Positions 994 through 3,222 of a stretch of 32,000 bases of DNA are shown one piece after another. The stretch comes from Candidatus Saccharimonadota bacterium (GTDB taxonomy: Bacteria; Bacteroidota; Bacteroidia; Cytophagales; Amoebophilaceae), in the NCBI RefSeq assembly GCF_964030745.1, contig NZ_OZ034918.1, positions 540,001-572,000 on the forward strand. Direction: 5' to 3'. Both the position numbers and the translations under genes were made by a program. Numbering within the stretch: the first letter of the stretch is position 1; every line of letters begins with the position of its first letter. Under the pieces are notes generated by a model. The model was not told the origin of the DNA. It saw only the letters and a list, made by a program, of their open reading frames with translations, and searched no databases.

Positions 994-3222
994 TTATTTT
1001 AATAGGATAATAATTTGGTTAGCAGCTACTTTAGATTGTTTGCATACCACACCATGTATGTTTCCTTCTATGGTAACTTTTAGGCCATTATTTTCTAATA
1101 AAAAGAGGGCATCACGTAATTTCATATGCAATACATTAGGTACTTCCTTTGGAGTTTGGGGTGTAGATGGTTGAAAGCTACTTTCTTGAGCATTGACCTC
1201 CAGCCGTCCCCAACTTGCCCCTGCATGAATATTTTCAGGTATAGGAAATCCAAGGGATTGATACAAAAAGCTTAATTCATTGGTATGGCCCATATTAGAA
1301 AGCAGGGTTGCATGAACCCCTACTTTAGACCTATTTAGAAACTCGATTGCTAATGGCAATTTTGGTGTCGAATCTGGTCTATGCTCCTCAAATACACCCA
1401 AGTATCTTGCGGCGCTCGACTGAGCTTCTCCTAAAAACTGCTCACCACAAATAGATTTTGCAAAAGAGCTATTAATGGGTTTTCTTGCATGTAAATCTTT
1501 TCCAGCTATTCTATCCACAATATCTTTAAATATAGGCGCAGGCACCTCTGAACCAAACCGAAAGCTTGCTCCTTGTGGGCTGTCTACCACAATGATGCAA
1601 CTATAGCGAGGATGATCAGCTGGAAAATAGCCAGCAAACGAAGTGAGGTGATTATCTGTATACTTTCCACTGACCAATTTTTGAGCAGTACCTGTTTTAC
1701 CAGCTATTTTATAAAATCCATGCTTAATGCGTTGTGCCAACCCCTTTTCTACTGTACCTTCCAGCATCGCTTTGAGTTTAGATAAAGTTTCATTTGAGCA
1801 GATCTTTTCTTTTAAAATAGTAGTCGGAAAATTTTTAACCACGCCATTAGCTGACTGTATATGCTGCACAAACATAGGTTTCACCATTGTACCATTATTG
1901 GCCACAGCATTATACAGCACCAACATCTGAAGGGGGGTGATCTGTAAGTTGTAGCCAATAGAAAGCCATGGGAGTGCTACACCACTCCACATTTTGCTAT
2001 TGGGCGTGATCATATAGGGTTTTCCTTCTCCAGCTAACTCAATGCCTAGGGGTTGGTGTATGCCCAATTGCTCCATATAATCAATAAATTTTTGAGGGTT
2101 TGCACCAAATGCTTCTTGAACAGCCATGGAAATACCCACATTAGAAGATTTCTCAAATACCTCTTGTAAGGTAAGTAGTCCATAACCTCCTTTTTTTACA
2201 TCTCTCATCCATCTATTGTAAAACTGAACCACACCCTCTCCAGTATCTACCAGTTTAGTAAGCGGCCATCCCGTTTCTTCTAACAAAGCCAACATAGAAG
2301 CCAATTTAAAAACAGAACCTGGTTCAACAGTGCCTTGGTTACCAATAGCATAGTTATAGGATTCTATATATTTTCCAGATTCCATACGAGATAAATTGGC
2401 CATTGCTTTAATGGCGCCAGTAGCTACTTCCATTACAATAGCACAACCATTTTGCGCCTCGGTTTTCTCCAGAACAGCTAACAAACTACTTTGGGTTACA
2501 TCCTGTAGGTTGATATCCAAAGTAGTTACCAAATCAGCGCCATGTATAGGGGGTATCATGTTACCCTCAGGAACCTTTTTCCAATTGCCTCCTACTACTT
2601 TCTGGTAAAGCGCCTTGCCATCTACACCTTGTAATGCTTTGTTAAAAGCATATTCTAACCCAAATCCATAGGTTTCTCGATGCATACCAATTGTACGCCT
2701 AGCCAATTCCTTAAAGGGGTTATAACGTCTATTTTGCGCTTCAAAAATCACACCTCCTTTAAATTTTCCTTGATTAAAAATGGGCCATTGGCTCATTTTT
2801 TTCTTGTCTTCGTAGGTGATGTAGTCTGTATGCAATAACAGATACCTCCGTTTTTTAGCACGTGCATCCATGATTCGTTTTTTATAGTATTGGGGGGGAT
2901 TGTCTTGGTAAAAATCAGACAATGCTTGACTGAGTGGATCTATGCCTGCTTTAAAGCAGGCATCTGAAGCAACAAGCGGATCCAAAGCAACCCTATAAAA
3001 TGGCAGAGAGGTAGCCAATAAAGCGCCGTCATGGGCATAAATATTGCCTCTAGAGGCTACAATAGGCTTATATGCTAGCTGTGCAACTTTAGCACAATGG
3101 CGCCACTTATCGCATTCTACAAATTGTAAGTGCACTATTTTCCATATAATAAGCACTACAAAACATAGAATAGAAAGAAAAATTATTCTGGCACGTAATA
3201 AGATGGCCTTAGTGAAGGTCAT
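994..3222 (-). CDS. ftsI: Class B penicillin-binding protein / peptidoglycan D,D-transpeptidase FtsI, carrying a repeat-derived in-frame insert
   Basis: 742-aa ORF with ATG at 3222. It has an N-terminal membrane anchor, transpeptidase motifs (SVFK, SSN, KTGTA) and a small C-terminal PASTA-like tail. It lies between the ftsL-like gene and murE. Confidence 0.9.
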   Translation of the reverse strand: MTFTKAILLRARIIFLSILCFVVLIIWKIVHLQFVECDKWRHCAKVAQLAYKPIVASRGNIYAHDGALLATSLPFYRVALDPLVASDACFKAGIDPLSQALSDFYQDNPPQYYKKRIMDARAKKRRYLLLHTDYITYEDKKKMSQWPIFNQGKFKGGVIFEAQNRRYNPFKELARRTIGMHRETYGFGLEYAFNKALQGVDGKALYQKVVGGNWKKVPEGNMIPPIHGADLVTTLDINLQDVTQSSLLAVLEKTEAQNGCAIVMEVATGAIKAMANLSRMESGKYIESYNYAIGNQGTVEPGSVFKLASMLALLEETGWPLTKLVDTGEGVVQFYNRWMRDVKKGGYGLLTLQEVFEKSSNVGISMAVQEAFGANPQKFIDYMEQLGIHQPLGIELAGEGKPYMITPNSKMWSGVALPWLSIGYNLQITPLQMLVLYNAVANNGTMVKPMFVQHIQSANGVVKNFPTTILKEKICSNETLSKLKAMLEGTVEKGLAQRIKHGFYKIAGKTGTAQKLVSGKYTDNHLTSFAGYFPADHPRYSCIIVVDSPQGASFRFGSEVPAPIFKDIVDRIAGKDLHARKPINSSFAKSICGEQFLGEAQSSAARYLGVFEEHRPDSTPKLPLAIEFLNRSKVGVHATLLSNMGHTNELSFLYQSLGFPIPENIHAGASWGRLEVNAQESSFQPSTPQTPKEVPNVLHMKLRDALFLLENNGLKVTIEGNIHGVVCKQSKVAANQIIILLK
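1327..1470 (+). repeat. Diverged 144-bp copy of the 142-bp palindromic element (PE), translated as part of FtsI
   Basis: Hand alignment to the copy at 7821..7962 shows long identical runs (ctaatggcaattttggtgtcgaa, tctatgctcctcaaataca, cttctcctaaaaa). There are two 1-nt length differences. It encodes FtsI residues ...SFAKSICGEQFLGEAQSSAARYLGVFEEHRPDSTPKLPLAIEFLNRS... Confidence 0.8.

Follow-up and report, generated by a model that had tools for sequence, protein, structure and literature searches.

A probable RPE-1 palindromic element lying in frame within the division gene ftsI of a Cardinium symbiont of insects

Results

The ftsI locus and its insert

Rickettsia palindromic elements (RPEs) are textbook selfish DNA inside protein genes; they have been regarded as a Rickettsia trait, with related repeats known from Wolbachia, and to our knowledge the mode by which they move has so far not been known. 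Here we analyze a stretch of 32,000 nucleotides (positions 540,001 to 572,000 of contig NZ_OZ034918.1; the whole stretch is called the window below) in which the division gene ftsI carries, in frame, a 144-nt segment that is probably a fossil copy of RPE-1. The host is a Cardinium (Amoebophilaceae, Bacteroidota), as judged from the homologues of FtsI, which are FtsI proteins of Cardinium (the best matches), Amoebophilaceae, and Cytophagales, and from synteny of the neighbors ftsL, M32 carboxypeptidase, recG, murB, and, downstream, murE with the Cardinium genome CP101107.1. The features of the gene are as follows.

994..3222, minus strand: ftsI, a class B penicillin-binding protein (PBP) of 742 residues; Pfam domains PBP_dimer 54-180, Transpeptidase 259-569, and PASTA 693-735
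1471..1473, minus strand: upstream copy of the 3-bp target-site duplication (AAT, the codon of Asn584), from the flanking triplets
1327..1470, minus strand: element assigned to the RPE-1 family, 144 nt or 48 codons, with its sense frame 0 in the phase of ftsI, FtsI residues 585-632
1324..1326, minus strand: downstream copy of the target-site duplication (now AAA, Lys633), from the flanking triplets; the GGA TCG of the orthologues is gone after it

A sequence-only reading of this DNA had proposed that the ftsI segment is homologous to a 142-bp palindromic element present five more times in the window. The homology is borne out both by BLASTN (84-88% identity to the intergenic copies over ~121 nt, E down to 6e-38) and by nhmmer with a profile of the element (E 5e-39). 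All five intergenic copies were recovered, one of them at 143 nt, but a further copy at 3243-3386, in ftsL, had been missed, which brings the number in the window to seven. The segment does lie, as had been described, in the linker that separates the transpeptidase domain from the PASTA domain (Pfam 259-569 and 693-735), and it encodes its 48 residues in a single frame (SSFAKSICGEQFLGEAQSSAARYLGVFEEHRPDSTPKLPLAIEFLNRS). The corresponding frame of the canonical element stops at a central TAG. At this point the ftsI copy reads TACTTGGGTG as against TAC-TAGATG in the intergenic copies, a difference of one extra base, and it has one further extra base in the distal arm, in agreement with the earlier alignment.

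The insertion is in codon phase 0 and in sense orientation, directly after Asn584. Comparison of the empty site in orthologues (ATT AAT GGA TCG) with the filled site (ATT AAT, 144 nt, AAA GTA GGG) gives an insertion of 48 element codons and one duplicated codon with two native codons missing, i.e. a net gain of 47 residues over the orthologues. In gene sense the target duplication reads AAT/AAA, a match at two of the three bases. In alignments of 21 and 117 FtsI sequences, extra residues after the motif ARKPIN are found only in the window protein and in P0002, the product of a deeply diverged Cardinium ftsI allele (contig L001, run SRR25400081); the insert is missing from 19 of 20 and ~115 of 116 orthologues and is thus lineage-specific, as the earlier reading had anticipated. 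A Cardinium genome with an empty ftsI site has the element at four nearby intergenic places, so that the contrast between filled and empty sites falls within the element-bearing clade. The hairpin of the ftsI copy has decayed, with a z score of -1.4 in the window and 0.2 in L001.

Intergenic copies form a transposon-like unit

The intergenic copies of the window are listed here.

7821..7962, minus strand: 142-nt copy upstream of recG; target duplication atg/atg; fold -64 kcal/mol, z -10.5
8294..8436, minus strand: degenerate copy of 143 nt; target duplication att/att; an open reading frame (ORF) of 89 residues at 8225-8494, which is likely spurious, overlaps it
11365..11506, minus strand: 142-nt copy; target duplication ata/ata
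13938..14079, minus strand: 142-nt copy located downstream of murB, 13 nt from its stop; target duplication att/att
18417..18558, plus strand: 142-nt copy upstream of leuS; target duplication ttt/ttt; fold -65 kcal/mol, z -11.8

These copies are 90-96% identical to one another and form one full-length hairpin (-64 to -65 kcal/mol, z -10 to -12). The inverted terminal repeats extend over no less than 15 nt; perfect 15-nt ends (AGACCTTCTGCAAAA) are present on both sides of four copies, and the element is palindromic throughout. Read in gene sense, the canonical copy encodes RPSAKAIYDEQFLGEAQSSTAAY in frame 0, ending at the central TAG, and ..LDVFEEHRQASTPKLPLEIGFAEG in frame 2. The 3-bp duplication, already recognized in the earlier reading at ftsI, is perfect at all five intergenic copies of the window, at three of four copies in contig L003, at two of three in L007, and at no fewer than four (at least) of the Wolbachia copies described below. 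In the two Cardinium contigs L003 and L007 the duplicated triplets are ttt, aaa, aat, att, and att, the sequence differing by copy; a few duplications, that of ftsI included, match at two of three bases only. The element prefers A/T-rich triplets as its target. The clean duplications, together with filled and empty orthologous sites in both Cardinium and Wolbachia, point to transposase-mediated insertion, and the element would presumably have been moved by a transposase acting in trans. A scan of a genome collection with a 24-nt degenerate core pattern returned only a chance 24-nt match, in a metagenome-assembled genome of Streptosporangiaceae (L006).

Two of the loci have counterparts in a second Cardinium genome. 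Both the window (7821-8436 and 13938-14079) and L003 (3115-3678 and 903-1039) have two copies upstream of recG and one copy 13-15 nt downstream of murB, and these copies are ~90% identical between the genomes although the synonymous divergence (dS) of the flanking genes is ~0.8-1. This likeness suggests constraint on the element, homogenization, or repeated insertion. The ORFs 8225-8494 (plus strand, 89 residues) and 13854-14063 (plus strand, 69 residues) consist mostly of the antisense frame of the element (..PISNGNFGVEACLCSSNTSSILRCST..) and are likely spurious gene calls; the small ORFs P0121 and P0122 of other Cardinium genomes are of the same element-derived kind.

The element probably belongs to the RPE-1 family

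When the 48-residue insert was compared with a protein collection it matched two small Cardinium ORFs, one of which is named by NCBI 'palindromic element RPE1 domain-containing protein'. With a profile built from the Cardinium peptides there were 70 matches among 1.84e9 representative proteins, including NCBI-named proteins of Wolbachia, Rickettsia, Tisiphia, and Cardinium in which the RPE1 segment is internal to recognizable domains; the Wolbachia matches include a PD-(D/E)XK nuclease of wCfeT, an ankyrin-type protein of wCori, and RuvX. Scores against the NCBIfam model TIGR01045 (RPE1), which has a curated cut-off of 30 bits, were as follows.

Rickettsia peptide P0183: 75.5 bits
Cardinium ftsL copy, sense halves joined: 62.9 bits
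Wolbachia-type peptide: 48.4 bits
Cardinium P0123 insert: 42.2 bits
Cardinium canonical element, joined (reconstructed): 39.8 bits
Cardinium P0122: 34.0 bits
Cardinium ftsI insert: 25.6 bits (E 9e-6; colinear with positions 10-48 of the profile)

No NCBIfam match was obtained with the tail of FtsL or with the antisense-frame peptides of the canonical element.

DNA copies of the Wolbachia type were obtained from a metagenome scan with the Wolbachia-type peptide (contigs L008-L017). They are 144 nt long, have ends AGACCTCTTTCGAAACC..., and are flanked by the 3-bp duplications agt/agt, att/att, att/att, and aat/aat; at the DNA level they share 78-81% identity with the ftsI copy and 80-84% with the intergenic copies of Cardinium. 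The Wolbachia-type elements lie in frame in RuvX, a PD-(D/E)XK nuclease, a UvrD-like helicase, riboflavin synthase, and ankyrin proteins. All named homologues of the riboflavin synthase that contains one of these copies are from Wolbachia. The earlier reading had assigned the window copies to an unrelated element family, and on this point it has to be revised: the other copies score 34-62.9 bits with TIGR01045 and the DNA is 78-84% identical to that of the Wolbachia type. We put the probability at roughly 85% that the ftsI segment is a fossil RPE-1 copy and that RPE-1 is a non-autonomous, fully palindromic miniature transposon of exactly 48 codons.

Two host proteins of the family deserve separate description. 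The Wolbachia-type riboflavin synthase (L010, 2920-3642) has 240 residues, as against the usual 198, the RPE1 copy being inserted in frame behind residue 26. Among the named RibE proteins of group-A Wolbachia, some have 243-246 residues and may likewise contain inserts. In P0123 (494 residues, from a contig of the European Nucleotide Archive, ENA) a Cardinium-type RPE1 segment at 286-334 connects, within a single ORF, an N-terminal part that resembles PMT_2 glycosyltransferases with a NusB domain, and this protein may be either an element-mediated gene fusion or a read-through artefact.

The open 144-nt form is probably ancestral

The ftsI copy aligns with the Wolbachia copies at the DNA level without any gap, and with the intergenic Cardinium copies with two. 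Its peptide is likewise gapless against the RPE-1 peptides of Wolbachia, Tisiphia, and Rickettsia and against the other genic Cardinium peptides; only P0121, an ORF of an intergenic-type copy, needs gaps, at the same two points. The 144-nt copies that were examined have an open sense frame 0, and those from Wolbachia an open antisense frame 2 as well. The gapless fit of the ftsI copy to RPE-1 of Rickettsiales argues that the 144-nt open form is ancestral, with no need for compensatory repair. The 142-nt intergenic copies of Cardinium would then be a subfamily of later date, in which one base has disappeared from the center, creating the TAG, and one from the distal arm. As 48 codons and a 3-bp duplication add 147 nt, or 49 codons, the frame of a host gene cannot be shifted. 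An insertion in phase 0 and in sense, of which ftsI and the riboflavin synthase of Wolbachia are examples, can be read at once.

A second genic copy in ftsL

The gene upstream of ftsI contains the copy that had been overlooked.

3260..3724, minus strand: ftsL-like gene (Pfam FtsL_2), the last 41 codons and stop of which are element-derived, from Pfam and comparison with orthologues
3243..3386, plus strand (RPE-1 sense): second genic RPE-1 copy, 144 nt, Rickettsia-like; nhmmer E 6e-30, hairpin z -5.2

In the orthologues, FtsL terminates nine residues past the motif VPPYII, and the gene overlaps the start of ftsI by 14 nt. In the window protein the final nine residues are replaced by a tail of 41 residues (AFSRNATSAGNLHVDPVLKSSRTSSTLRFCAPCLLQIPEHK), which is the antisense frame of the element up to the element's own stop; the usual overlap is broken, and ftsL and ftsI are now 37 nt apart. 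The sense translation of this copy (..YAQEFVGDTERKTAAY / DVREDLSTGSTCKLPAEVAFREKA) is of the Rickettsia type, and its two halves, which score 25.5 and 27.2 bits with TIGR01045 when unjoined, reach the 62.9 bits given above when joined. Its DNA is 62-68% identical to that of the other copies, and it is absent from L001, L003, and L005. This diverged, Rickettsia-like copy implies that the genome has two lineages of RPE-1, one Wolbachia-like (the ftsI and intergenic copies) and one Rickettsia-like (the ftsL copy).

Selection on the insert and its predicted structure

The ratio of nonsynonymous to synonymous substitution rates (omega) was taken from the comparison of the window with L001, at dS ~0.8-1 and with 45 insert codons compared.

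Transpeptidase domain: omega 0.07
N-terminal module: omega 0.08
PASTA domain (downstream of the insert): omega 0.12
Insert: omega 0.31
Native linker: omega 0.54

The dS of the insert (1.07) is comparable with that of the rest of the gene (0.8-0.9), and the two inserts share 51% amino acid identity. The PASTA domain downstream is conserved under strong purifying selection, which argues for in-frame translation of the insert. After it was inserted the copy lost the hairpin, kept its frame, and evolved like linker sequence (omega ~0.3).

A model from AlphaFold2 (AF2) with the 21-sequence alignment was uninformative (predicted local distance difference test score, pLDDT, 49). Rerun with the 117-sequence alignment, AF2 gave a pLDDT of 85.8 and a predicted template modeling score (pTM) of 0.72, with values below 50 at residues 585-637 only. 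The domain positions and this model together place the insert in what is predicted to be a permissive part of FtsI. The RPE-like behavior that the sequence-only reading had described in a protein gene agrees with what we find, insofar as the element is in frame, appears to be read through, and occupies the same site in a related lineage. We infer that the insert is a translated, flexible, and tolerated loop that would have little or no function of its own.

Alternative explanations

Several points weigh against the interpretation of the ftsI segment as a translated RPE-1 copy that was inserted once. Taken alone, the ftsI insert stays under the TIGR01045 cut-off (25.6 versus 30 bits), and the Wolbachia label of the metagenome contigs derives from one host gene and the type of the peptide. 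Within the 32-kb window there is no transposase or parent insertion sequence (IS) with the same ends, and no transposase ORF was identified among the window ORFs that were scanned. Translation of the insert is read from selection on the domain that follows it (omega 0.12), and the low AF2 confidence in the insert is probably due in part to the few sequences aligned there. In the phylogeny, the neighbor-joining (NJ) tree of FtsI calculated without the insert columns unites the window protein and P0002 with a bootstrap of 59%, and the quartet-informative sites of murE prefer the window with L003. The phylogenetic points also favor a history in which the window and L001 lineages were hit independently at the same hotspot, or in which the ftsI allele was passed on by recombination, as do the star-like radiation of Cardinium group A and the preference of the element for A/T-rich triplets. 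Against such a history, P0002 has its insert at the same nucleotide and in the same orientation and phase, and GGA TCG is missing after the duplication there too; the L001 insert, which has two more in-frame deletions of two codons with the frame kept, is still recognized by the DNA profile (nhmmer E 5e-10). The two inserts share the derived residues Phe at position 3, the YLG center, and L[AV]IEF, the quartet-informative sites of ftsI stand at 16:6:4 for the window with L001, and the dS of the insert matches that of the gene. Independent hits or recombination are unlikely. As far as comparison of the alleles can tell, a single insertion event in the common ftsI allele is favored by the identity of the site, by the loss of two codons and the derived residues that both alleles have, and by the agreement in dS.

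The other readings concern the fate of the insert. The sequence-only reading had held that insertion was followed by compensatory change. On such a model a 142-nt element (145 nt with the duplication) truncated and frameshifted FtsI, and two later +1 mutations removed the TAG and restored the frame; within the window the genic copy does differ from all five intergenic copies at exactly two single-base positions. Both of these 'extra' bases, however, sit where every 144-nt copy of Wolbachia has a base, and the register of the insert (..AAY-LG-VFEEH.., ..EIEFxxRS) recurs in the peptides of Rickettsia, Tisiphia, and Wolbachia and in the genic Cardinium peptides P0122, P0123, and P0188. An independent repair that restores the ancestral register at two points is very unlikely, and its route passes through intermediates without the PASTA domain, which is conserved. 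We consider compensatory repair highly improbable, and the polarity that had been proposed is to be reversed. Co-option of the insert, with selection on its sequence maintaining it as a spacer or interaction surface of use to FtsI, would agree with an omega below that of the native linker and with its retention over dS ~1 in two lineages, but this ratio comes from 45 codons, the amino acid identity is no higher than 51% with two in-frame deletions, AF2 predicts no confident structure for the insert, and all other Cardinium in the alignment do without it. Co-option is in our view rather improbable; that the insert has been retained is explained by the need to keep the downstream frame and by the absence of a route for precise excision. 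Finally, repeats are prone to misassembly, and ftsI could be a pseudogene that is truly disrupted at this point, a possibility that the earlier reading had itself raised. An independent Logan assembly of another run (L002, SRR15069915) nevertheless contains the same ftsI with an identical insert and three single-nucleotide polymorphisms elsewhere in the gene, the diverged orthologue has the same in-frame insert, and purifying selection acts on both sides of it, so that an artefact or a pseudogene is scarcely credible. The reading that we retain is that of an RPE-1 copy inserted in frame.

Other features of the window and of Cardinium FtsI

The only Rfam match in the window is a tRNA gene (26383-26454, plus strand), and the same scan found no family matching any of the element copies. 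Another repeat family of ~210-300 nt with 91-95% identity occurs at 8664-8877, 13461-13773, and 29799-30111 and contains nested inverted repeats, e.g. CGATATCTTTTTCAGCGG / CCGCTGAAAAAGATATCG. A tandemly duplicated unit of ~690 nt (24164-24257 / 24851-24944 and 24481-24529 / 25114-25162) consists of an A/T-rich leader, 89% identical between the units, followed by the paralogous small ORFs 24266-24676 and 24944-25441. A repeat of ~90 nt with 84-88% identity is present at 25670-25762 and 31592-31685, with the internal inverted repeat TTTTTTGTCCACTTT..AAAGTGGA and a weaker third copy at 8925-8974. Two other Cardinium lineages, represented by the Cardinium hertigii FtsI proteins P0006 and P0010, have a tandem duplication of 16 residues (LYQ[KR]VVGGKK.VD.KT) in the N-terminal module of FtsI (alignment A2, columns 221-236), which has no relation to RPE.

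Discussion

The element resembles Rickettsia RPE-1 (TIGR01045) in being a palindromic repeat of ~140-150 bp that is present in many copies and encodes a peptide of ~48 residues, which in several copies other than that of ftsI reaches the curated cut-off, in lying in frame in housekeeping genes at permissive and probably solvent-exposed sites, and in having insertions common to related strains; the homology is direct, with up to 62.9 bits in the window and colinear peptides. It differs in its host, which is a Cardinium of the Bacteroidota and not a member of the Rickettsiales, in its targets ftsI and ftsL, and in that most Cardinium copies belong to a 142-nt intergenic subfamily with a broken ORF. 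A further difference from RPE-1 as reported is the clear 3-bp target duplication visible here. With the Wolbachia RPE1-type elements it shares a length of 144 nt, AGACCT... ends, 3-bp duplications, an open sense frame 0, and 78-84% DNA identity, whereas the host phylum is different and the Wolbachia peptides read STTKLP as against STPKLP. The Wolbachia elements may or may not be the published Wolbachia palindromic element (WPE) (Ogata, Suhre and Claverie 2005), which has been likened to RPE-4/6/7 and not to RPE-1 (PMC3767692).

[quoted passage not shown] MITEs are also known from Cardinium itself: MITECca01/02 of Cardinium cOegib (PMC9769881) are, like the present element, mostly intergenic. 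MITECca01, which represents the one kind of MITE that the searchable literature describes from Cardinium, is ~240 bp long, derives from the IS982-family element ISCca4, and was reported missing in other Cardinium strains (Halter et al. 2022, PMC9769881). On its published description, therefore, the present element is not MITECca01, both for its size (142-144 nt versus ~240 bp) and for the origin described. Repeats of the REP/RAYT type (repetitive extragenic palindromes and REP-associated tyrosine transposases; GTAG or CGTC tags, 20-40 bp) were likewise rejected on size and structure.

That RPEs insert in frame is a long-established observation from Rickettsia (Ogata 2000, 2002, as summarized in PMC10969869, PMC3733652, PMC3767692, PMC4316617). 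The searchable literature contains no report of RPE-type or palindromic elements in Cardinium, and none of a target duplication for RPE-1. The phenomenon of in-frame RPE insertion is thus already known, and what appear to be new are the host phylum, the target duplication, and the two division genes as targets.

The presence of RPE-1 copies with ~80% DNA identity in a symbiont of the Bacteroidota argues that the family moves between phyla, presumably in co-infected arthropod cells, and its arrival in Cardinium would have been by horizontal transfer from Rickettsiales, or by exchange with them, in shared arthropod host cells. We give about even odds to a broader view in which RPE-1 is not peculiar to Rickettsia but is a miniature transposon that passes across phyla, exchanged between endosymbionts of arthropods (Rickettsia, Tisiphia, Wolbachia, and Cardinium), and is tolerable within genes by virtue of its 48-codon open palindrome and 3-bp duplication. 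The two Cardinium lineages would then imply at least two transfers, and the duplications would be the first concrete clue to how RPEs move. The length of 48 + 1 codons explains why insertions so frequently spare the gene. The element also produces spurious small ORFs and possible gene fusions in annotation. In this Cardinium the adjacent division genes ftsL and ftsI have both been remodeled by RPE-1, which bears on the evolution of the peptidoglycan and division machinery in reduced symbiont genomes.

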